The position numbers and the translations under genes are program-made. This document shows positions 1-14,245 of a stretch of DNA of 14,387 nt, piece after piece. The notes beneath the pieces were generated by a model. It had not been told where the DNA came from and did no database searches. It worked only from the letters and a program-made list of their open reading frames with translations. Source of the DNA: Candidatus Culexmicrobium cathedralense (GTDB lineage Archaea; Thermoproteota; Methanomethylicia; Culexarchaeales; Culexmicrobiaceae); NCBI GenBank assembly GCA_025061115.1, contig JANZKC010000007.1, positions 1-14,387 on the forward strand, read 5' to 3'. How positions within the stretch are numbered: the stretch's first letter is position 1; every line of letters begins with the position of its first letter.

Positions 1-1622
1 TCTAAAATTACATGTGTAATATTCTTTAAAACGTAATCTGAAGCAGTAATTGAATCTGCAAGATTTTTACCATATTCTTTAAGTATTTTATCTGCAGTTC
101 TACTTGCATCATGCAATGTAACATGGAATGCCCCTATAGTTGAAATATAATCTAAAGATGTAGTTGCATCCGCTATTTTTTTGCCTATATTCTTGGATAG
201 ATAGTCGATGCTGGTAATTGTCTCCGCCATATACTTTACAGTTTCTTTTACATGCCAATCGGCAACCTTAGAGCTGTCAGCCAGCTCTCTTACATATACG
301 CTTATTTTTCTGAAATCAAAGTCTCCATAAACTCTATCCATCAACATTTTACTTAAACTCTTAGAAATATAGTCTCCAACTGAGCTTAAATCTCTTAAAA
401 GCCTAACTGTGCTTTTTCGTGTAACGTCATAAACTGATGATGAGTCTCTAATGTTGATTGATGGAATTTTAGAAATTAGGTCGATCAATTTGCTTGAATC
501 GGTCAGAACAATGTATCGTGAAGCAATTTTAGATATGTAGTCTAATAGCTTGCCTGCATCGGTAAGTGTCACGTGGAATGACGCTGAAGGCTGGATGTAA
601 TCGAAAGCCTCTGCAGAATCAATTAGCATTACAGTTGGCTTTTTAACTATTCTGTCAATACCCTTAACTACTTCCCTAAGCACTTTGCCTCTAATGGTTG
701 TAAAATCAAAGTCTCCGAAAACCCTATCTATAAGCGACACGTAGTAGCCGAAGTTAATGTACTCGCATAAGCTGGCGTAATCCCTTAAAGCTCTGAGGAA
801 GCCTCTATTCAAATAATCGCTTATACTGGAGTAGTCGGAGATGATTATTTTAGGTTGCTTAGAAACGTAATCTTCAACTTCACCTATATCTACAATATCT
901 AAGTGGAAGCTCACAGTCCTAGAGAAATAATCTAATCCCTTACTAGTATCAACTAGCTTTTTGATTGAAGTTTTCCTTAATGAATCAGAAGCCTTGCCAA
1001 CATCAGTAATGCTGACTTCGTGTGCTACTCCTACTGGCAAGTCAATGTAGCTGTTTTTATGTGCTGATGCCCATTGATTCCAGTCTGATGTCCATGCATC
1101 GTAATATCCAAATATGACGCTTATAGTTTCATTTATTAGCCCATATGGATTAGATGAACCTATGCTCCATGCATCTGGCGTTTTCTCTATTACTGTTATG
1201 GTGTTGTCTGGATTTATTTTGAATTTGATTTTGGCATAACGGTTGTAGCTTCCATTGCTCCATCCAGCCCTGCTCATATTTATTCCAACCATTATCCAGC
1301 TCGGCGGGACTTGGTCTTTGTCAAGGTAGCTTGAAGGTGCAATGAACCACCTGAAATTAGCTCTAGTACTATTGTATCCGTGATATGCTCCAAACCAGCC
1401 TTCAATCGTTATGGTGTCGCCCTTAAGTTGCACTTGATGTGCAACTAGAAATCCATAGCAGTGTTGTGGATAAGTTACGTTTTGCTCGTAACTTCTTTTA
1501 TGGTCTGTGGCTGGCTGGTTTAACTGTATTGCAGGATAATTCCTATATGAATATCCAGTGTTATACATGAAGAAATGACCTTGAGTATCATTCCACCTAT
1601 CTGAAACATAATATTTAGTCAT
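1..1622 (-). CDS. Putative virion fibre/adhesin: ~195-aa aromatic-rich N-terminal domain plus ~18-20-aa repeats; truncated at window edge (>540 aa)
   Basis: Not in the ORF track; translated by hand. ATG at 1622-1620 with upstream GAGGGGG SD, open to position 1: MTKYYVSDRWNDTQGHFFMYNTGY... then repeats such as ITDVGKASDSLRKTSIKKL / LTDAGKLLDYISK / LADSITASDYVLK. The fibre call is inferred from repeat architecture and context. Confidence 0.8.
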   Translation of the reverse strand, partial: MTKYYVSDRWNDTQGHFFMYNTGYSYRNYPAIQLNQPATDHKRSYEQNVTYPQHCYGFLVAHQVQLKGDTITIEGWFGAYHGYNSTRANFRWFIAPSSYLDKDQVPPSWIMVGINMSRAGWSNGSYNRYAKIKFKINPDNTITVIEKTPDAWSIGSSNPYGLINETISVIFGYYDAWTSDWNQWASAHKNSYIDLPVGVAHEVSITDVGKASDSLRKTSIKKLVDTSKGLDYFSRTVSFHLDIVDIGEVEDYVSKQPKIIISDYSSISDYLNRGFLRALRDYASLCEYINFGYYVSLIDRVFGDFDFTTIRGKVLREVVKGIDRIVKKPTVMLIDSAEAFDYIQPSASFHVTLTDAGKLLDYISKIASRYIVLTDSSKLIDLISKIPSINIRDSSSVYDVTRKSTVRLLRDLSSVGDYISKSLSKMLMDRVYGDFDFRKISVYVRELADSSKVADWHVKETVKYMAETITSIDYLSKNIGKKIADATTSLDYISTIGAFHVTLHDASRTADKILKEYGKNLADSITASDYVLKNITHVIL

Positions 1623-1961
1623 AATGCCCCCTCATAGTAGAATCCATATTTGTCTCCGTCAAACCAGCTCCAGCCGTGAAATATGTGGTAGTCTTCTCCC
1701 CACTTAACTACATACAATATGTAATCGCCATCTTTACAGCTGAATTTAAGCTCTAGAATTGAAGTTAACTTTTTCTTTCCAGCATTTTCATCAAGTATTA
1801 TTGATTCAAATTCTCTGAGGCTTGCCCTCCTTCTAATAACCTTGTGAGATGCTAAGTTACTGCAAGGAACGAAAAAACTGAATGAAACTGCTTTTCCTCC
1901 TAACTATTACTTCTCTATCATCAATACAAATACTGCATTCGCCAAACTTTATCTCCGCCAT
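1619..1961 (-). CDS. Hypothetical protein split by a +1 frameshift near 1877-1871 (113 aa if joined); alternatively a pseudogene or sequencing error
   Basis: SD AGGTGA and ATG at 1961 give 34 codons (MAEIKFGECSICIDDREVIVRRKSSFIQFFRSLQ*). The +1 frame is open from 1903 to TGA at 1621-1619, which overlaps the next ATG (ATGA), and has no early start codon. Confidence 0.65.
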
Positions 1962-2046
1962 AAACTCACCTTAATCTGCATCAATTCAAATCCAAAAATA
2001 ACCTTAAATAACTTCTAATATATTGTTTTTTTAGAGGCGATTACAC
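1962..2046. promoter_or_regulatory. Divergent archaeal promoter region
   Basis: AT-rich gap between divergent starts (1961 minus, 2047 plus). A purine-rich run is followed by TATA-like CCTTAAATA (~2002-2010), which reads TATTTAAGG on the minus strand. SD motifs on both sides. Confidence 0.55.
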
Positions 2047-2637
2047 GTGAAAGATAAAGGTGTGGATATTGGGAGAATTCAGGGGTTTGTGGAAATAATC
2101 GTTAGAGACAAGCATGGAAGAGTTAAGGTTCATATTGGGAGACCGCCTTTTGTGAAGCTTCCAATGATGAAGAAGAAGAAAAATAACCCTCACAGCCTTC
2201 CAATAATGAGTTCTCTTCCAGCTAAAACCATTGACTTGGAGTACTGGCGTAAAAACATTATTACTAATGTTGGATTAGCCGAGATAGTTAGACTTGTATT
2301 CTCTGGGTTAACTGGAACTAAATTCGGCTACCTAGCTATTGGAACTGGCACCACAGCTGAAAGTGCAAGTGACACTGCATTGGAAGCTGAAATTGCACGT
2401 AAATCAGCTTCAGTTTCTCAGACTACTACAACCATTACGGATGACACAGCCCTCTTAGAGGCTACCTTTAGTTCCGCTGACGGGTTATCTGGCACACACG
2501 CAGTTAGTGAAGCTGGAATATTTAATGCAGCTTCGGGTGGAGTGCTTTTAGCTAGAAAAACCTTCTCAGCAGTAAATGTCAATTGGGATGCTGGGGACAG
2601 CTTGACAATAAGATACTACGTGCAGTTCACAAGATAA
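2047..2637 (+). CDS. Phage tail-fibre/baseplate attachment-like virion protein (DUF3751/gpH N-terminal-like)
   Basis: Motifs NIITNVGL...YLAIGTGTTA...DTALEAEIARK...EAGIFNAASGGVLLARKTF...DSLTIRY recognised as typical of this phage structural family. GTG start after GAGGCGA. Confidence 0.75.
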   Translation: MKDKGVDIGRIQGFVEIIVRDKHGRVKVHIGRPPFVKLPMMKKKKNNPHSLPIMSSLPAKTIDLEYWRKNIITNVGLAEIVRLVFSGLTGTKFGYLAIGTGTTAESASDTALEAEIARKSASVSQTTTTITDDTALLEATFSSADGLSGTHAVSEAGIFNAASGGVLLARKTFSAVNVNWDAGDSLTIRYYVQFTR

Positions 2638-2659
2638 CATTAAACAGAGGTGACTAGAA

Positions 2660-3031
2660 GTGCCAGTGAGGATAAGGGAGAAGCAGAGGATTAAAGGAAC
2701 AGTCACTCCATCAGCATTAAATACTGAAACTGACGTGATAAACCTTGCAGATCAGTCTGACGACTACATTATTGAGGGGTACATTGACTTGGCAAATATG
2801 GCTTCAGATGATGTAGTGGAGCTTAAAGCGTACATTGCAGTTGACGGAGCAAATCAAAGGCTAATGGACAAAATAACTTTCTCTGGCACTCAAGAAATAC
2901 CAGTAGTTAGAATTGTTGCTCACACAGTTCCGTATGACGGCAAGTTCAGAATAACTATTACTCAGAAGGCTGGAAGCGCATTGAAGTCATTTCCATATGC
3001 ATTCACGGTGCAGGTGATGGAGACAATCTAA
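2660..3031 (+). CDS. Hypothetical beta-rich protein, probably virion-associated
   Basis: 123-aa ORF with SD GAGGTGA and an alternating hydrophobic beta-strand pattern; lies in an operon with the tail-like gene. Confidence 0.7.
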   Translation: MPVRIREKQRIKGTVTPSALNTETDVINLADQSDDYIIEGYIDLANMASDDVVELKAYIAVDGANQRLMDKITFSGTQEIPVVRIVAHTVPYDGKFRITITQKAGSALKSFPYAFTVQVMETI

Positions 3032-3045
3032 ATGAGGTGAAAAAA

Positions 3046-3423
3046 GTGAGCTTCTGGCACCCAAACAAAATGCCCCTAACACTAATAGGGGCAGATGACA
3101 CTCAAAAGCAGGTGACAGGCACTGCTGAAACTGAAGTAAAATACCTCAGGTTCAGCCAGCCATCGGCAAATGCTTACAGAATGCTCAAAGTGAACTTAAG
3201 CCTATGGGTTTCAGGTGGAACGGGATACGCATACATATACATTAACGATGAAGCAACTCCTAGAATAACCCTCCAAACAACTTCAACTTCAGAGGAAGTG
3301 CTGTCTGGAGAATGCAGCATATCAGATCTTCCTGCTGGAGTCCACATAATTAAGCTGAAAATAAAGAACAGCGATGCAGGTCAAACAACTTATACTGAAT
3401 TGCTGGAGGTGTACGCTAGTTGA
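3046..3423 (+). CDS. Hypothetical beta-sandwich protein, probably virion-associated
   Basis: The track starts at 3037, but SD GAGGTGA (3034-3040) favours GTG at 3046. Thr/Ser-rich beta pattern with LPAGVHIIKLKIK. Stop overlaps the next start (TTGA). Confidence 0.7.
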   Translation: MSFWHPNKMPLTLIGADDTQKQVTGTAETEVKYLRFSQPSANAYRMLKVNLSLWVSGGTGYAYIYINDEATPRITLQTTSTSEEVLSGECSISDLPAGVHIIKLKIKNSDAGQTTYTELLEVYAS

Positions 3424-3887
3424 GTATTGACGTTAGAAGCTGTGAGGAATGCCAAATATGCGTTTCATGTGAAAACTGCTATGGATGCCAATCATGCTAC
3501 ACTTCATGCTACTCATGCTACTCATGTCAAAGATGCGATGTGTGCGACCGCTGCTATTCATGCTATGGCAGCTGCGAGACGTGTCAAAGGTGCTATGGCT
3601 GCCAAAGATGCGATGCATGTGAGAAGTGCTACACTTCATGCTATGGCTGCTATGCCTGCCAGACTTGTGATGAGTGTGAGCATTGCGTCTCATGCTACGG
3701 CAGCTGCGAGACATGTGCAACATGCGTTTTATGTGAGACATGCGATTCATGCCAAATATGCGTTGTATCGTGCTACTCATGCTATTCATGCGAATCATGC
3801 GATGCTGCCCAAACGTGCCCAACATGTCAAGTGTGCGCTGCCTGCGAATCATGCAATGTATGTGGACTTAATGTCATATCTGAGTAG
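3420..3887 (+). CDS. Cys-X-X repeat protein A (45 Cys in 155 aa); candidate radical SAM substrate or metal-binding fibre
   Basis: TTG start coupled to the upstream TGA, SD GGAGGTG. Cys at every third residue, with a CXXS unit at Cys 7, 14, 21, 28 and 35. Confidence 0.88.
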   Translation: MSIDVRSCEECQICVSCENCYGCQSCYTSCYSCYSCQRCDVCDRCYSCYGSCETCQRCYGCQRCDACEKCYTSCYGCYACQTCDECEHCVSCYGSCETCATCVLCETCDSCQICVVSCYSCYSCESCDAAQTCPTCQVCAACESCNVCGLNVISE

Positions 3888-3898
3888 GGGGAGTGAAA

Positions 3899-4411
3899 AT
3901 GAGTTTGAACATACGCAGAAGGGCGGTTAAAACTCCAGATATTAAGGATGTTGAGTGCCCCACGTGCGAAACCTGCGTTACCTGCGACCTATGCGTAACC
4001 TGCTACGGCAGCTGTGAGGCATGTCAAGTATGCGTAGGATGCCAGACTTGTGATGCCTGCCAGAAATGCAATGTAAGTTGCTACAGGTGCTACTCATGCC
4101 AGCGCTGCGACGCATGCGACCAATGCTACAGCTGCTACGGCAGCTGCGAGACATGTCAAGTGTGCGCAGCCTGCGAAACGTGTGATTACTGTCAAGAGTG
4201 CTATTCTTCATGCTATGTATGCTATTCATGCCAGACATGCGACGCATGCGACAAATGCTATACGTGTGAAGGCTCATGTGAGGCATGTCAAATCTGCGTT
4301 TCATGCGAAAAATGCGTGACGTGCTACTTCTGCAACACATGCGAGTCATGCAATACATGCCAAATGTGCTATGACACAACTTATACATGCCCAATAGGAG
4401 TTTACGTATAA
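3899..4411 (+). CDS. Cys-X-X repeat protein B (46 Cys); paralogue of A
   Basis: ATG 3899 (or GTG 3893) after GGGGGAGTGA. Same period, with CXXS at Cys 6, 13, 20, 27 and 34. Shares 24 identical nt with gene A (3693-3716 = 4133-4156). Confidence 0.88.
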   Translation: MSLNIRRRAVKTPDIKDVECPTCETCVTCDLCVTCYGSCEACQVCVGCQTCDACQKCNVSCYRCYSCQRCDACDQCYSCYGSCETCQVCAACETCDYCQECYSSCYVCYSCQTCDACDKCYTCEGSCEACQICVSCEKCVTCYFCNTCESCNTCQMCYDTTYTCPIGVYV

Positions 4412-4458
4412 AAATTAAAATAGTTAAAAGTCAAAAATAGTGATTGTAGGTGAAAGCC

Positions 4459-4722
4459 GTGTCGTGCAAAGTATGTTATGAATGTGAGAAATGCTTTACA
4501 TGTGAAAGGCAATGCGGAATATGCGTTGCATGTGAAGTTGGAGTAGCCCCTCAACCCCAACCTCAGAGAATGCCGCCGCAGCAAAGAAGACCTGCTCAGC
4601 CACCTAGAATGCAAATACAGCAGCCAATAACTAGAGAAGAAGTAAAGGAAATAATACTTGAAACTCTAATTGAACTTGGAGTCATAAAGCCAGCCAAAAG
4701 GAGAGAAGTAAACCTTGAATAG
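4459..4722 (+). CDS. Short Cys-X-X protein C (8 Cys) with Pro/Gln linker and amphipathic C-terminal helix
   Basis: SD AGGTGA (4448-4453) favours GTG 4459 (track: 4450). Sequence CKVCYECEKCFTCERQCGICVAC, then PQPQPQRMPPQQ..., then ITREEVKEIILETLIELGVI. Overlaps the rSAM start. Confidence 0.8.
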   Translation: MSCKVCYECEKCFTCERQCGICVACEVGVAPQPQPQRMPPQQRRPAQPPRMQIQQPITREEVKEIILETLIELGVIKPAKRREVNLE

Positions 4723-5845
4723 AATGCAATTTCCGCCGCTAGGCGAATTAACAGTATGGAATACAAGTAGATGTAACTTCAGGTGCAAATATTGCTTCGT
4801 CTTTAAATTATATGAGGATATTCCTCGCCAAGAAATGCAGAGAGAAACCATGAATGCACTACTGCATTTTGCACGCCACAATCTTAGAAGAGATGGAATG
4901 ATATGGTTTTTCGGCGGTGAGCCGCTGGTCAGCTTCGACACTATGAAGTATATTACTGAGAAGGCTGTTGCAGATAATCTCGCCATAAGATTTGGAGTTA
5001 CAACTAACTGCTACCTGCTCAACAAGGATATCCTCAAATGGATGAAAAAGTATGGTTACGGCATTCTATGCAGCATAGATGGACTGCAGAAAACACATGA
5101 CAAATACCGTGTATTGCCAGATGGCAGAGGCACATGGAAAGTAGTATGGGAGAACATAAAGAAAGTCAAGAAAATATTGAATCCAAATCCACAACTAAGA
5201 TGGACTTTTTCACCAGAAACAATTGACGGTCTTACCGAAGGATTAAAATTCTTCGTCAAGCATGGCTTCACAAACGTAGCAATAGACGCAGTATATGAAG
5301 TTGAATGGGACGAAGACAGCCTCAACCAACTTAGAGAAGAACTAACCAAAATGCGTGACTTCCTAGACAAATGCTATGAGAGAAACATACCAGTATTCAG
5401 CATGTTCGTTAGAGATGCAGCAACGGCAGTAATGAACAACAGAAGAATAAACTGGACTCAAAGATGTGGGTTAGGTCAAGGCGGAGTGGGAGTGGCTCCA
5501 GACGGCAAAATATACCCCTGTCACAGATTCTGTTCTTCAAGGAAGCTTGTGATTGGAAGTGTGTTTGACGGATTTTATCCAGAGAGGATATATTTGAACG
5601 AAGAGTGGCAAAAAGTTCCGCCTTACTGTGAGGTTCCAGAGAGATGTCTAAGTTGTAAATTCAAAAATGCATGTATGGGCGGCTGCCTTGCTGTGAACTA
5701 CGACTTATTTGGAGACATGCATATAGTTCCAAAAGCAATGTGCGACATAAAGAACATTGTAGTGGAAGTCTTTAAGCCGCTAGTTGTAAAGCATAAGGAT
5801 AATCCTACGTTTAGAAGAATATTCAAAGTTCAGGTGAGAGAATGA
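4715..5845 (+). CDS. Radical SAM/SPASM-domain protein (anSME/peptide-maturase-like)
   Basis: CNFRCKYC (CxxxCxxC), FFGGEPL, TTN and SIDG motifs. SPASM cysteines in CGLGQGGVGVAPDGKIYPCHRF and CLSCKFKNACMGGC...C. No N-terminal RRE extension. Confidence 0.95.
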   Translation: MNRMQFPPLGELTVWNTSRCNFRCKYCFVFKLYEDIPRQEMQRETMNALLHFARHNLRRDGMIWFFGGEPLVSFDTMKYITEKAVADNLAIRFGVTTNCYLLNKDILKWMKKYGYGILCSIDGLQKTHDKYRVLPDGRGTWKVVWENIKKVKKILNPNPQLRWTFSPETIDGLTEGLKFFVKHGFTNVAIDAVYEVEWDEDSLNQLREELTKMRDFLDKCYERNIPVFSMFVRDAATAVMNNRRINWTQRCGLGQGGVGVAPDGKIYPCHRFCSSRKLVIGSVFDGFYPERIYLNEEWQKVPPYCEVPERCLSCKFKNACMGGCLAVNYDLFGDMHIVPKAMCDIKNIVVEVFKPLVVKHKDNPTFRRIFKVQVRE

Positions 5846-6099
5846 GTAAAATTAAAAATTTAGTTAAAGCAGTTCTAGGATTAATAATTTTCACCTTATT
5901 TCTTATGGCTGTCGTCCCGTCGGCACCTGTGGTGGTTGCATTTTGGTTTATTCCAATAATAGTTCTAGTGATGGTTGGATGGTTTGCAGTAATTTTAGGA
6001 GTTGTAGCTTGGATTATAAATAAGTTGAAAAGAAAATCGAAGTTTTCTGATTTAACGAGAAGTCCTAAAAGCAATATGCGACGTAAAGACGCTTGTTAG
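5842..6099 (+). CDS. Small membrane protein (about 2 TM segments, basic termini)
   Basis: ATGA overlap with the rSAM stop; long hydrophobic stretch over roughly residues 7-59; Lys/Arg-rich tail. Confidence 0.7.
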   Translation: MSKIKNLVKAVLGLIIFTLFLMAVVPSAPVVVAFWFIPIIVLVMVGWFAVILGVVAWIINKLKRKSKFSDLTRSPKSNMRRKDAC

Positions 6100-7312: not shown

Positions 7313-7987
7313 GTGGAGGTGATTCAGCATTCTATGAACCCAGTTAGAAAGGGTTCTGGGTGGGAGCACCTTCTAGTGATTGCAAGAATTGAAGGGTTAA
7401 AGAGGGCTTACACGTGGAATCCAGCTGTAGGCTGTCACGGAATTGGATGTGAAGTTAAGAAGCGTGGAGTCTGCTGGGCTGAAAAGTTTGCTAAGCGATT
7501 TAAAATTGACTTTACTCCTCACTTGATTCCAGAGAGGTTGAAGGATCCTTACAGGCTCAAGAAGAGTGCAGTGATTACACCTGTAAGTATGGGAGACCTG
7601 TTTGGATTGGAGCCGCAGCACACTGAAGCTATATTAAATGTTATAAGAGACTGTAGCTGGCATAAATTTGCAATACTTACTAAGCTTCCTCAAAACGCAT
7701 TAAAGTTCAATCCATTTCCAAGTAATGTTTGGTTTGGTGTTTCAGTTAACTTGCAAGATGACGTTTGGAGGCTTGACTGCCTAAAGAGAGTTGAGGCTCC
7801 AAGAAAATACGTGCTTTTTGAGCCATTATACTCTGCAATTAACTATGACCTTTCATGGCTAGACCTAATTGTAATTGGCTGTCAAAGCTACCCTACAGTT
7901 CAGCCTAAGAAGGAGTGGGTTGAAAGCATACTTAGAAATAGCGGTTCAGCCAAAGTATTCTTCAAATCAAATCTAAAGCCAATTTAA
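7313..7987 (+). CDS. DUF5131 / phage Gp37Gp68-family protein (three-Cys, radical-SAM-like)
   Basis: TWNPAVGC...C...CWAE, SMGDLF, ILTK, NVWFGVSV, FEPL, WLDLIVIG and VFFK motifs. Start uncertain (7313, 7334 or 7376). Confidence 0.88.
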   Translation: MEVIQHSMNPVRKGSGWEHLLVIARIEGLKRAYTWNPAVGCHGIGCEVKKRGVCWAEKFAKRFKIDFTPHLIPERLKDPYRLKKSAVITPVSMGDLFGLEPQHTEAILNVIRDCSWHKFAILTKLPQNALKFNPFPSNVWFGVSVNLQDDVWRLDCLKRVEAPRKYVLFEPLYSAINYDLSWLDLIVIGCQSYPTVQPKKEWVESILRNSGSAKVFFKSNLKPI

Positions 7988-8824: not shown

Positions 8825-9035
8825 TCATTAAGTTCATTATGAATTTGATTATTCTATATGTCACTGTTTTGTCGAATACTATTAGCGTGTCTTCATTTGG
8901 ATTTTTTGGATCGAATATTCTTACTGTTAGGTGCCCCCAATCGTTAAGTGCAACTTGCACTTCATTCGGGTATTCTGCATTAATTACAGTCTTTGTGGAT
9001 TCAATCTTTCTCTTGATAATTTCAACCACTTTCAT
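8793..9035 (-). CDS. Hypothetical protein
   Basis: 80 aa, ATG with GAGGGGG SD, overlaps both neighbours. Confidence 0.7.
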   Translation of the reverse strand: MKVVEIIKRKIESTKTVINAEYPNEVQVALNDWGHLTVRIFDPKNPNEDTLIVFDKTVTYRIIKFIMNLMSEASEHNCEC

Positions 9036-9201
9036 CTTCCCCCTCTTTAACTTCTAGTTTCTTAATTCTCAATTCGCCGTCGCCTTTCTCCAGCTTTAAT
9101 AGTTCACCTTCCTTCCAGTTCAGTTCTCTCACTATTTTTATTGGCAGTGGTATGTAGTATGATTTGTATATTTTTCTCAGAAAAACTATCTTGGACTTCA
9201 C
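9022..9201 (-). CDS. AbrB/MazE/SpoVT-family DNA-binding protein (59 aa)
   Basis: LRKIYKSYYIPLPIKIVRELNWKEGELLKLEKGDGELRIKKL is a swapped-hairpin signature. GTG 9201 follows SD GGAGGTG (track start 9393 is too long). Confidence 0.85.
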   Translation of the reverse strand: MKSKIVFLRKIYKSYYIPLPIKIVRELNWKEGELLKLEKGDGELRIKKLEVKEGEDESG

Positions 9202-9254
9202 TTTCACACCTCCAAAAAATTTTAATAGTTTGCAACATATAAATTTTATGAAAA
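9200..9254. repeat. 55-bp direct repeat, copy 1 (divergent promoter/SD cassette)
   Basis: actttcacacctccaaaaaattttaatagtttgcaacatataaattttatgaaaa; 52/55 identical to 10101-10155. Confidence 0.92.
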
Positions 9255-9273
9255 TATTATGGGGGCTTGAGAA

Positions 9274-9513
9274 GTGTTTAGGCTTAATCTCACAGAAAGT
9301 GAAAGAGAAGCAATAATAAAAGAGTTGGCTGAGCGAATGAAAGACATAGTGTACATTAATGCAGAGAAAAGAGCTGAGGAAGTGATAGAACAATTATTAG
9401 CCATGAATCTAAAACCCGATAGCAACATAACCATCAGCTACGTCATTCACTTCACATTTGACGACATACTGCAGATGCTGGGAAGGCTAAGGCGGAAAAG
9501 TGGAGGTGAATGA
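9274..9513 (+). CDS. Hypothetical protein
   Basis: 79 aa, GTG after GGGGG, just downstream of the repeat cassette. Confidence 0.65.
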   Translation: MFRLNLTESEREAIIKELAERMKDIVYINAEKRAEEVIEQLLAMNLKPDSNITISYVIHFTFDDILQMLGRLRRKSGGE

Positions 9514-10619: not shown

Positions 10620-10934
10620 ATGGTTAACAATAATTTTTTAGTGTTAATGGAACAGTATAAATGCCCAGTTTGCGGAGCGACTTTCCGAAGCATCTTTAAG
10701 TTGAAGCAGCATTTCAAAATGACGCACATGAAGCACCGCCCATTCATATGCCCGATATGTGGAAAGAAATTCATTAACGAGATACGTCTAGCAAAGCACT
10801 CTTTAACTTGTAATGATGAGAAGCACATGGCACTTGCATTTCTCTGCTACAACTTGAGAACAACAAAGCTGAGCAAAGAAAAGAGAATGCAAATGATAAA
10901 CGCTGCAAAACACGTTTTCAAAATTGGAGCGTGA
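10620..10934 (+). CDS. Tandem C2H2 zinc-finger protein
   Basis: YKCPVCGATFRSIFKLKQHFKMTH and FICPICGKKFINEIRLAKH; this protein type is common in crenarchaeal viruses. Confidence 0.88.
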   Translation: MVNNNFLVLMEQYKCPVCGATFRSIFKLKQHFKMTHMKHRPFICPICGKKFINEIRLAKHSLTCNDEKHMALAFLCYNLRTTKLSKEKRMQMINAAKHVFKIGA

Positions 10935-13436: not shown

Positions 13437-14150
13437 TTAAAAGGTGGGAGGCTTCCTCATTTCCCCTCTGAATAAATTATGTAAGAAAGATAGTTGTTCT
13501 GCAGTCAGTTCTTTATTAAATATAAGAACCTCTCCTATATATCCATTGAACCAATGACCATCACCACTCGCAGCGCCATCGTGAAACTTTGTGCTATCTT
13601 TCATCGCTCCTATACCAATATCGCCAGAATGCGCCCACAACTGAGAACCTTCACCACTACCAAATAATACGCCATCTAAATACCCTTTAAAGGCGTCAGG
13701 CGAAAGCGAAGTACCACCCTTTAAAGTTAATGCCGCCCAATGCCATTTTCTGGACTCTATTTCGTCAGTATAGAGGAATGTGCCGCTCCATCCAGATTCT
13801 CCAGACGGTGTATTCCAGCCACCTATATATAGGTAGCCTGCATGGACATAAATATTTAATCCTCTAACTGTCGCTCCCTCTTCATATATCACTTGTTTTC
13901 TATTGGATATATCTTTATCAATAACATAGAACCACACAACAATAGTCCTCTCGGTGTGCACATCAAGATTGATATCAGGTGTGTCAGGTACATGGATATA
14001 ATCGTCTTCACCATCGAAATACAGCAAATAATCTCTATATTTTCTTACCCAAGAAGCACCATATATTGTTCCATGATTATTGCGTCCACTTCTATCATAT
14101 ACTATGTCTCCACTACCCTCATTTAAAGGCAACACTAATACTGGATGCAT
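13437..14150 (-). CDS. LamG/concanavalin A-like (Laminin_G_3) domain protein, likely virion adhesin
   Basis: LPLNEGSGDIVYDRSGRNNHGTIYGASW...LYFDGEDDYI...WHWAALT...YLDG...FNGYIGEVLIFNKELTAEQL. Start at ATG 14150 or GTG 14159. Confidence 0.9.
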   Translation of the reverse strand: MHPVLVLPLNEGSGDIVYDRSGRNNHGTIYGASWVRKYRDYLLYFDGEDDYIHVPDTPDINLDVHTERTIVVWFYVIDKDISNRKQVIYEEGATVRGLNIYVHAGYLYIGGWNTPSGESGWSGTFLYTDEIESRKWHWAALTLKGGTSLSPDAFKGYLDGVLFGSGEGSQLWAHSGDIGIGAMKDSTKFHDGAASGDGHWFNGYIGEVLIFNKELTAEQLSFLHNLFRGEMRKPPTF

Positions 14151-14245
14151 AAAAACCACTCAAATACAAATAATCAAAAAACAAGTTTTAAACATAATGC
14201 TGATCCATTCAACCATACATTCTAAAATTCTCCAATTTATAAACA

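Follow-up and report, generated by a model that had tools for sequence, protein, structure and literature searches.

A cysteine-repeat gene pair with a radical SAM/SPASM enzyme behind a putative fibre-tip gene on a virus-like archaeal element

Radical S-adenosylmethionine (SAM) maturases with a SPASM domain act on short secreted peptides and rarely on protein subunits, QhpD being a SPASM enzyme that staples not a secreted peptide but a protein that remains in a larger assembly. The pairing of evenly spaced cysteine repeats with a SPASM maturase is known already from the CXXX-repeat system and from the cysteine-every-fifth proteins CefA/CefB, the other evenly spaced cysteine-repeat/radical SAM names in NCBIfam. 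The PapB enzyme forms Cys-to-Asp C-beta thioethers in CX3D motifs and possesses three [4Fe-4S] clusters, whereby the substrate chalcogen binds an Fe of an auxiliary cluster (PMC10177961). In the anti-phage HXS system, HxsA, a protein with His-Xaa-Ser repeats matured by radical SAM chemistry (HxsB/HxsC), is reported to be an effector (PMC13128918). The subject of the present analysis is a cysteine-repeat/radical SAM gene module on the 14,387-bp stretch of DNA referred to as the window, which is the entire contig C7 of a 25-contig, 1.98-Mb archaeal assembly (Candidatus Culexmicrobium cathedralense, GCA_025061115.1). Two proteins with a cysteine at nearly every third residue, A and B, are encoded directly behind a putative fibre-tip domain, P128, and are followed by a small protein, C, and a radical SAM/SPASM enzyme, R.

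In the proposed reading, structural proteins associated with the fibre receive many thioether cross-links from a maturase that the virus encodes, and taken as a whole we regard this reading as evenly poised between right and wrong. Its parts differ in strength. A and B are quite probably substrates of R, because of the enzyme class and the strict linkage of the genes. For the reaction, we lean slightly towards ranthipeptide-type thioethers from cysteine to D/E/N/Q side chains, which are favoured by the C-[Q/D/E/N/Y]-[S/T] pattern of the repeats together with the ranking of the family matches of R. A structural, fibre-associated role of A and B seems somewhat better than an even guess; it is favoured by the coupling to the fibre-tip gene, the place that the module has among structural genes in other viruses, the protein sizes, the constancy of the paralogue pair and the lack of a peptidase or exporter. 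It is from the genes that we infer A and B to be substrates, as well as the thioether chemistry with its sites, the virion location, the purpose and any Fe-S or metal loading.

The cysteine-repeat proteins A and B

The module is part of a block of closely packed genes on the plus strand (2047-6099). A first-pass annotation of the sequence had noted three consecutive cysteine genes with 45, 46 and 8 cysteines and an overlapping radical SAM gene, and all four open reading frames (ORFs) are confirmed in place, all on the plus strand: CXX-repeat protein A of the 'short-leader' type (MSIDVRxC..., 155 aa, 45 Cys) at 3420..3887, CXX-repeat protein B of the 'long-leader' type (MSxN(I/V)RRRAxKTxDxKDxEC..., 170 aa, 46 Cys) at 3899..4411, protein C, a maturase-associated module (90 aa, 8 Cys), at 4450..4722, and R, the radical SAM/SPASM maturase predicted by Pfam, motifs and NCBIfam (376 aa, 15 Cys), at 4715..5845, with an overlap of 8 nt between C and R. 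The most likely start of B is the ATG at 3899 (170 aa) rather than the GTG at 3893 (172 aa), because orthologues and the Atlas record start there; C may start at the GTG at 4459. Conserved N-termini precede the repeats, of about 6 aa in the A type (MSIDVR) and of about 20 aa in the B type (MSxNIRRRAxKTxDxKDxE).

The distance between successive cysteines is three residues in 38 of the 44 gaps of A, with five gaps of four and one of six, and in 39 of the 45 gaps of B, with five gaps of four and one of seven. The spacing 3,3,3,3,3,3,4, in which a four-residue step comes with each seventh cysteine, amounts to a 22-residue super-repeat. Cysteine makes up about 29% of both proteins, which also contain 13 and 14 tyrosines, respectively. 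In a survey of stop-to-stop frames of at least 40 aa across the whole 1.98-Mb assembly, A and B are the only frames with periodic cysteines among 16,872 and rank as the top two in cysteine density (13 per 40 aa). The two are paralogues with 61% identity.

Two metagenome contigs, L167 and L168 (L numbers denote loci and P numbers the nearest radical SAM relatives from a 1.84-billion-protein library), carry a close relative of the window element. Identity to the window is 87-90% for the fibre gene, 91-92% for the gene of a 123-aa protein and 92% for the radical SAM enzyme, and it is 67-68% for the tip domain, 62-64% for A, 64.5% for B and 64-66% for C. Aligned with the L168 orthologues, A retains 43 of 44 cysteine columns and B 44 of 44, with 50% and 54% identity, respectively, in the non-cysteine columns, and insertions and deletions comprise whole triplets. 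Constant cysteines with a changing filling would look like the appearance expected of a rigid scaffold with a variable surface.

Cysteine-periodic frames could in principle be a by-product of repetitive DNA in which another frame is the coding one, and other frames are indeed open across A (3427-3930 on the plus and 3433-3852 on the minus strand). Against this, the codon differences between A and B show a third-position excess (39, 27 and 59 at positions 1, 2 and 3) and include 27 synonymous codon differences, and a different cysteine codon is used in 10 of 40 aligned Cys-Cys columns. Population variants, taken from contigs of four other runs, point the same way: among the 40 best-supported of 186 variant sites, 19 fall in A/B; read in the CXX frame, 11 of these are silent, including six TGC<->TGT exchanges, and eight are non-synonymous, with none removing a cysteine, while only 3 and 7 of the same 19 are synonymous in the two other plus-strand frames. 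In R, 15 synonymous and 3 non-synonymous variants are found. Tandem Repeats Finder recovers 9-nt micro-repeats only from the DNA of A and B, which are therefore not a DNA tandem array, and the cysteine register is kept by orthologues in more than 20 loci. With paralogue codons, population variants and the conservation of the cysteine columns in L168 all refuting it, the non-gene explanation retains a practically negligible probability; A and B are confirmed as genuine coding genes, with the CXX frame as the coding frame.

Over the 447 CxxC triplets of 12 proteins, the residue at position +1 after the cysteine is Q in 124, Y in 70, D in 69, E in 63, V in 42 and N in 42 cases, and the residue at +2 is S in 144 and T in 112, which gives the repeat consensus of the A/B group as C-[Q/D/E/N/Y]-[S/T]. 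As with period 3 each cysteine has a +1 position four residues further on, CxxC[DE] and CxxC[DENQ] motifs arise, of the CX3D/E form. A and B contain 12 CxxC[DE] each and 21 or 24 CxxC[DENQ], next to 9-10 CxxCY and 6 CxxC[VAILF] each. This pattern is compatible with thioether formation, of which it is no proof.

Described families are of little help for these proteins. At E <= 0.1 there is no NCBIfam match to A, B or C, a word-indexed search of A against 5.8 billion proteins returned 26 candidates with none at E <= 0.01, the ESM Atlas gave no usable match for B and a Pfam scan of 10 cysteine-repeat proteins returned no family match; homologues of A and B were obtained via their loci. As a separate observation, contigs of one other run (X6) skip 190, 559 or 985 nt within A/B (window 3063-4331). 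These joints, which were left out of the evidence, may be variants in repeat number or gene number, or assembly errors in repeats.

The enzyme R and its small partner C

R matches the Pfam Radical_SAM model (PF04055) with 59.5 bits (cut-off 29.5) and carries CX3CX2C at C20/C24/C27, invariant in an alignment of 13 sequences. The seven-cysteine SPASM motif, C-x(9-15)-G-x4-C ... C-x2-C-x5-C-x3-C ... C, goes with two auxiliary clusters; in R it is represented by C251, C269, C311, C314, C320, C324 and C343, all invariant in the 13 sequences, with G264 as the SPASM glycine, so that the motif residues C251-C343 plus G264 are invariant or nearly so. The Pfam SPASM model itself scores 15.8 bits, below its cut-off of 21.5. 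From Pfam, NCBIfam and the motif alignment, R is thus predicted to be a radical SAM superfamily enzyme with a SPASM domain, in agreement with the first reading of the sequence.

A profile comparison with TIGRFAM-type families, which had been suggested as a check, places R closest to the PapB family (NF047865; 208.7 bits against a cut-off of 340, E 1.3e-61, profile positions 5-327 of 330), its best NCBIfam match. There follow ScfB-related (152.1 bits, cut-off 855, 2.2e-44), the SCIFF maturase TIGR03974 (148 bits, cut-off 425, 3.7e-43), QhpD (131.1 bits, cut-off 453, 4.6e-38) and the CXXX-repeat-target family TIGR04115 (110 bits, cut-off 350), while HxsB is matched with an E-value of 2.5e-31. 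The best family matches, PapB, ScfB-related, SCIFF and QhpD, are all thioether formers. As all NCBIfam scores lie below the cut-off, the reaction of R is not assignable by family membership.

That R modifies A and B by another SPASM chemistry, such as an alpha-carbon sactionine, a Tyr cyclophane or the conversion of Cys to formylglycine, is consequently to be considered, although we judge it unlikely. Besides the scores below all curated cut-offs, tyrosine as the second commonest +1 residue (70 of 447) would suit this alternative, as would the match of R to the anaerobic sulfatase maturase (1.1e-24 in NCBIfam, 5e-10 for PDB 4k37) and the fact that cyclophane-forming SPASM enzymes target three-residue repeat motifs. 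On the other hand, thioether formers far outscore the sulfatase maturases as well as the cyclophane formers (YhhB, for example, with 1.1e-22), and the cysteine itself is the sole invariant feature of the substrates.

Among solved structures, CteB (5wgg, E 9e-36) is nearest, the match spanning the radical SAM and SPASM domains. Residue 18 of R is the first to align, opposite residue 105 of the CteB chain; as CteB residues 1-104 are unmatched, R has no N-terminal peptide-binding domain (the recognition element, RRE, of enzymes that mature peptides made by ribosomes and modified after translation, RiPPs), which bears out what had been noted on the first pass. Locus searches with R as a single sequence gave no matches in the viral and genome collections, and alignment-based searches succeeded.

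Separately, inteins interrupt several close radical SAM homologues (P0001, P0004 and L095 4181-5874), with one insertion site at CX3CX2C and one just before the CHRF cysteine of the SPASM domain. In contigs of another run (X7), a loose end at about window position 4791 resembles, by eye, an intein end, and intein-bearing alleles of the R gene may thus exist in nature.

Protein C had been counted as a third substrate alongside A and B, a view that is revised here: C is not a further substrate of their kind, but a conserved module that goes with the maturase. All 8 cysteines of C fall in residues 6-28, where they form a CxxC mini-repeat; a linker rich in Pro and Gln comes next, and at the C-terminus there is a helix with the tail KPxxRRxVxL. 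In P0008, P0009, P0010, P0012, P0014, P0015, L004 and L005 an N-terminal CxxCxxCxxC with a Pro/Gln linker is fused to the radical SAM enzyme; stand-alone C genes, as in the window, L088, L167/L168, L173, L087 and L091, end in the conserved helix and KPxxRRxVxL. The tail is identical between the window and L168 and the linker differs, and in the Bathyarchaeia loci L087 and L091 the C module has no cysteine. In a model of the complex, residues 63-87 of C lie against the SPASM domain of R (R 195, 243-248, 300-312 and 330-337), with a score of 0.70, against 0.02 for the best control; contacts are at least 95% the same between runs and the partner pLDDT is at least 52. Of 80 solved complexes 58 attained the mark used for this score, as did 2 of 110 mismatched pairs, a calibration that is approximate, as own alignments were used. 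C is accordingly modelled as docked on the SPASM domain of R, and we read it as a maturase-tethered mini-copy of the substrate repeat, which may serve as a recognition device or primer or may itself be a substrate.

In the mechanism that we propose, R would be made in the anoxic host cytoplasm and, using its SAM cluster and two auxiliary clusters, would link the sulfur of cysteines in A and B to a carbon in the side chain of a residue close by. The likely acceptors would be the Asp, Glu, Asn or Gln after the next cysteine, in a ranthipeptide-type reaction like those of PapB, CteB and QhpD. The place of the RRE would be taken by the mini-copy of the substrate repeat on its flexible Pro/Gln linker, either fused to the enzyme or docked via C. 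Densely stapled in this way, the protein would be affected neither by heat nor by the redox state, and stapled A and B would become part of the fibre or host-recognition apparatus of the virion, in a hot, reducing fluid in which disulfides would fail.

Recurrence of the module and its virus-like setting

A cysteine-periodic ORF, for which a run of at least 8 was required, lies no more than 3 kb away and in the same orientation in 12 of the 14 loci with a radical SAM enzyme at least 33% identical to R; the two exceptions are L084, with 258 nt of upstream sequence only, and L093, which is partial. Such an ORF is found near the radical SAM gene in 44 of 78 viral (IMG/VR) loci and in 12 of 80 genome loci. 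Alignment searches with the tip domain gave 26 loci (2 viral and 24 metagenomic, some of them copies of one another), in 22 of which CXX genes lie directly 3' of the tip domain, and in all 18 CXX loci with enough downstream sequence a C-like gene or the fused motif and then the radical SAM gene follow. The recurrent order is tip domain, two CXX paralogues, C and radical SAM gene, whereby each CXX tip-domain locus holds one paralogue with a leader of about 20 aa and one with a short leader, in an order that can swap. The first-pass annotation had called for such a synteny survey and had named enzymes without CXX genes, or the reverse, as what would speak against the pairing; for the most part, these were not encountered.

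In a FastTree phylogeny of 141 radical SAM enzymes, the window falls in a clade of 16 (99*), in which 13 rows have period-3 DENQ repeats, 2 have period-4 DENQ repeats and 1 is without upstream sequence. This clade is separate from a clade of 32 with TIGR04115-type CXXX systems. Repeat labels change 18 times on the tree against a shuffled mean of 53.3; as relatives share labels, the tree shows clustering of labels and not independent co-evolution. Elsewhere, the repeats form parts of proteins of 237-1930 aa.

The cysteine-repeat/radical SAM pair had been considered unusual in an archaeal virus, and of this assessment the archaeal-virus setting stands; the pairing itself is not special to archaeal viruses, since period-4 versions in IMG/VR and versions in Bathyarchaeia exist. 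Period-4 cysteine-repeat ORFs occur within 3 kb of a TIGR04115-like enzyme in 38 viral loci (L028, L034, L041-L048, L056-L080 and others). The IMG/VR period-4 repeats are CTGSCTGSC-like, with about 60-740 aa and up to 151 cysteines in the ORFs examined, and PHROGs assigns three scanned period-4 proteins to phrog_6085, 'unknown function'. The nearest cellular relatives of the enzyme are found in metagenome-assembled genomes of Bathyarchaeia (L085, L086, L087 and L091), where mixed period-3/4 cysteine proteins of 430-600 aa and a cysteine-free version of C lie beside the radical SAM gene.

Proteins with about 29% cysteine could also be metal- or iron-sulfur-binding scaffolds akin to metallothioneins or cluster carriers, with the cysteines as ligands and R in another role or installing few links. 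The metal-rich settings of the sequence-bearing runs, which are labelled hydrothermal vent or sediment, would agree with this, the CxxC motifs of C could bind a cluster or zinc, and CxxCxxC runs also begin ferredoxin-type cluster motifs. It is nevertheless an unlikely explanation, as a dedicated SPASM maturase accompanies the repeats in 18 of 18 informative loci and enzyme clade and repeat type coincide on the tree. Furthermore, A and B hold 13 and 14 tyrosines whereas classical metallothioneins are, to our knowledge, without aromatic residues, and a pure ligand array would not need the Q/D/E/N/Y patterning at +1.

The genes upstream of A relate the module to fibres. The plus-strand block opens with the gene of a fibre-like structural protein of 196 aa (2047..2637, plus strand), which matches phrog_5417 (4.2e-19) and phrog_4176 'tail fiber protein' (2.7e-14), has a weak Pfam Gp80 fibre match and has a counterpart of 51% identity in L088. 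A conserved 123-aa protein (2660..3031, plus strand) follows, with sub-threshold Pfam matches only; its homologues, with 39% identity in L004/L090 and 49-51% in L173/L177, are always near a tip-domain gene. P128 itself (3037..3423, plus strand; 128 aa) is a putative fibre-tip or receptor-binding domain of TNF-like jelly-roll type, on the basis of an AlphaFold2 model (mean pLDDT 91.0, pTM 0.82) and of Foldseek. The top Foldseek matches comprise the C-terminal domain of Chlamydia Pgp3 (TMq 0.69), the TNF-like lectins BC2L-C and PLTL, the CBD of the short tail fibre of cyanophage A-1(L) and the C-terminal domain of Bd2734, a Bdellovibrio fibre tip. The same domain is the C-terminal part of proteins of 389 aa (L088) and 617 aa (L095) that match tail-fibre PHROGs.

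The start codon TTG of A (3420-3422) overlaps the stop codon TGA of P128 (3421-3423), and the same tight junction of tip gene and A is present in L168, L170, L172, L173, L175 and L177. The translational coupling of A to a tail-like gene, as first proposed, is upheld by this overlap and by the fibre-tip-like fold of P128. The proteins upstream of the module in L095, L088 and L005 match tail-fibre or virion structural PHROGs, and the module adjoins the terminase in L005 and the major head protein in L007. A tblastn search of 50,697 GenBank phage records with the tip domain, B (with the low-complexity filter on) and a 1472-aa protein of the element gave no match.

This setting bears on another possibility, in which A and B would give rise to RiPP-like products that are released, be it as a virus-encoded weapon to fight competitors or to manipulate or protect the host, and would not be virion parts. 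The family of R is known above all for maturing RiPPs, A and B possess short conserved N-terminal 'leaders', and a variable X on a fixed cysteine frame would also suit an arms race of toxin and target; in addition, an effector of the HXS system is a radical SAM-matured repeat protein (PMC13128918). Released products of this kind are nonetheless rather improbable here. Neither a leader peptidase nor a transporter, exporter or immunity gene family was found among the window ORFs scanned (20 by Pfam and 10 by PHROGs, with small ORFs covered in part), which agrees with the first-pass annotation as far as transporter and leader peptidase are concerned. The products would have 150-360 aa or would be domains in proteins of up to 1930 aa, the gene of A is coupled to the fibre-tip gene and in other viruses head, terminase and fibre genes are the neighbours, and the invariable co-occurrence of two paralogue types suggests assembly.

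The window is one part of a linear element. Bases 1-127 of C7 equal the end of contig C6 (L002), and the far end of C7 (14261-14364) is the reverse complement of C6 bases 1-104; by this overlap and inverted copy, C6 and C7 join into what looks like one linear element of about 39,905 bp, whose inverted termini measure at least 104 bp. It is distinct from the chromosome of the host, and relatives lack it, the radical SAM enzyme having been found at E <= 1e-30 in none of 60 related genomes. Together with homologues in IMG/VR, the inverted termini and this absence sustain the archaeal-virus context assumed at the outset. On C6, a MoxR-type AAA ATPase (483 aa) and then a VWA-domain protein (504 aa) are encoded at 923-3885, a pair that occurs in two-tailed archaeal viruses, too. 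C6 also encodes two GT4 glycosyltransferases, an FkbM methyltransferase and the 1472-aa protein, which has tape-measure-like matches. Homologues of the 1472-aa protein and of one glycosyltransferase are present on a module-bearing IMG/VR contig that also exists as a Methanodesulfokora washburnensis record. The assembly holds two reverse gyrase genes above the cut-off, and reverse gyrase marks a hyperthermophile; at least half of the stretch was found in ten hydrothermal vent or sediment metagenome runs, four of which may be the source; no RNA run was listed among the runs with the sequence.

Several observations weigh against the proposed reading. With respect to the chemistry, R stays under the curated cut-off of every NCBIfam model, and Tyr or Val, which are not PapB-type acceptors, occupy 112 of 447 +1 positions, about a quarter. 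The AlphaFold2 model of B had a mean pLDDT of 45.6 and was discarded as unreliable. With respect to linkage and variation, 4 of 26 loci have the tip domain but no CXX genes, and the Bathyarchaeia loci L087 and L091 have ordinary-looking genes around the module, so that the pair of enzyme and repeat is not intrinsically viral. The two genes 3' of the radical SAM gene are only 53-57% identical between the window and L168, lower than A and B, so that mosaicism, and not selection for variety, may lie behind the differences in A and B. With respect to the virus and its host, none of the ORFs scanned (10 by Pfam and 20 by PHROGs from part of C6, and those of the window as given above) could be recognised as a capsid, portal or terminase gene, and the 'tape-measure' matches of the 1472-aa protein may reflect a coiled coil only. 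None of 82 spacers of the arrays on contigs C1 and C4 matches C6, C7 or other small contigs, and the host is assigned by binning only, in a bin with 7.65% contamination. Finally, both the presence of A and B in virions and their modification are deduced from gene content.

If the reading is true, a radical SAM enzyme would serve viruses to harden their own structural proteins, each chain receiving tens of cross-links, and virions in hot, reducing or anoxic habitats would owe their stability to a principle that is new. The thioether-held rod would count as a new protein material, and a function would be assigned to a widespread, unnamed viral gene set. An RRE-less enzyme with a tethered pseudo-substrate is proposed as a new recognition mode for RiPP-type enzymes. 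As a tentative and rather doubtful generalization, viruses of anoxic habitats, from those of hyperthermophilic archaea at vents to the phages of IMG/VR, might build parts of their host-recognition fibres from 'cysteine ladders' with dozens of thioether staples each, set by a virus-encoded maturase that uses a tethered copy of the repeat in place of an RRE. Such staples would replace disulfides in a form proof against redox state and heat and would define a new class of cross-linked virion protein. With a fixed cysteine frame and a rapid turnover of the residues in between, a rigid rod could then carry varying specificities.

The remaining genes of the window are less directly related to the module. 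A small hydrophobic protein of 85 aa (5842..6099, plus strand), with a weak holin-like Pfam match below the cut-off, is encoded behind R, its ATG overlapping the stop codon of R. L167/L168 have no counterpart and there the next gene begins 48 nt after the radical SAM gene, and it is doubtful that this protein is a member of the module. A second, unrelated Fe-S-type gene of the element (7313-7987, plus strand) encodes a DUF5131 protein (PF07505, 103.1 bits) with similarity to phrog_2045 and to 'radical SAM mobile pair protein A' (TIGR04471, 65.4 bits, under the cut-off). In a block of small genes, a C2H2 zinc-finger protein (10620-10934, plus strand) and an AbrB/MazE-type DNA-binding protein (9022-9393, minus strand) are probably regulators. 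The minus strand further encodes a concanavalin A-like lectin/glucanase protein (13437-14159; Laminin_G_3, 46.7 bits) that matches virion structural PHROGs and may be another receptor-binding protein. At 3-1622, and continuing into C6, the minus strand codes for a protein of at least 540 aa composed of repeats of about 40 aa with a D-S-x-x-x-x-D-Y-I-S-K-like motif and without a family match; its identity in L168 is 62%, and L004 opens with a repeat protein of similar kind. Neither the Rfam nor the tRNA scan returned a match in the window.

Comparison with described systems

A described kind of such a system already exists, namely the CXXX-repeat system (TIGR04114/04115/04117). In the literature searched, with supplements and most subscription journals outside its reach, no paper on virus-encoded cysteine-repeat/radical SAM modules was found, nor a study of the CXXX-repeat family or of virus-encoded structural proteins matured by radical SAM enzymes.

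The CXXX-repeat system shares with the window a SPASM maturase beside proteins with long even runs of cysteine. The enzyme of L034 is a true TIGR04115 member (401.3 bits, cut-off 350), and in many IMG/VR contigs period-4 cysteine proteins of 300-430 aa adjoin TIGR04115-like enzymes. The period is 4 there and 3 in A and B, however, and the residues between the cysteines are T/S/G there, in contrast to Q/D/E/N/Y-S/T in A and B. R reaches 110 of the 350 bits required, A and B match neither TIGR04114 nor TIGR04117, and the CXXX enzymes form a clade separate from R.

PapB, the maturase of freyrasin, is the top-scoring named family for R, and repeated motifs of cysteine, three residues and an acid occur in A and B as well, alongside the CxxCY and CxxC[VAILF] motifs. 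R remains under the PapB cut-off (208.7 against 340 bits), and whereas PapA is a short peptide with six motifs, A and B hold about 45 cysteines in 155-170 aa. The SAM-cluster cysteines of PapB lie at 119-126 (PMC10177961), which implies an N-terminal domain, while those of R lie at 20-27. The module of R, in addition, sits in a viral and archaeal setting.

CteB, the SCIFF maturase, is a thioether former and the nearest solved structure to R. Its peptide-binding domain of residues 1-104 is absent from R, which scores 148 against 425 bits for TIGR03974, and SCIFF peptides have six cysteines and one link, unlike A and B. QhpD, which forms the thioethers of the quinohemoprotein amine dehydrogenase subunit QhpC, is matched by R at 4.6e-38 and thus again below the cut-off (131.1 against 453 bits), and QhpC is an enzyme subunit with three links. 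For the possible place of A and B in a virion, an analogy may be drawn with the T-even gp38-type adhesin, a small protein encoded right after the fibre gene that sits on the fibre tip and combines a conserved repeat scaffold with variable segments. The scaffold of gp38 is glycine-rich, though, and without a maturase, and there is no similarity in sequence or model to A and B.

The HXS system resembles the module in that radical SAM enzymes mature a protein with three-residue repeats and not a small RiPP; it differs as a bacterial defence with five repeats, a signal peptide, a periplasmic location and +8 Da chemistry (PMC13128918).

By its profile scores the module thus appears to fall outside the CXXX, PapB, SCIFF and QhpD families. 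Compared with the known systems, the period, the residue pattern and the paired substrates of 150-360 aa set it apart, as do the RRE-less enzyme with its tethered CxxC module and the fixed place of the module behind a fibre-tip domain in archaeal viruses.

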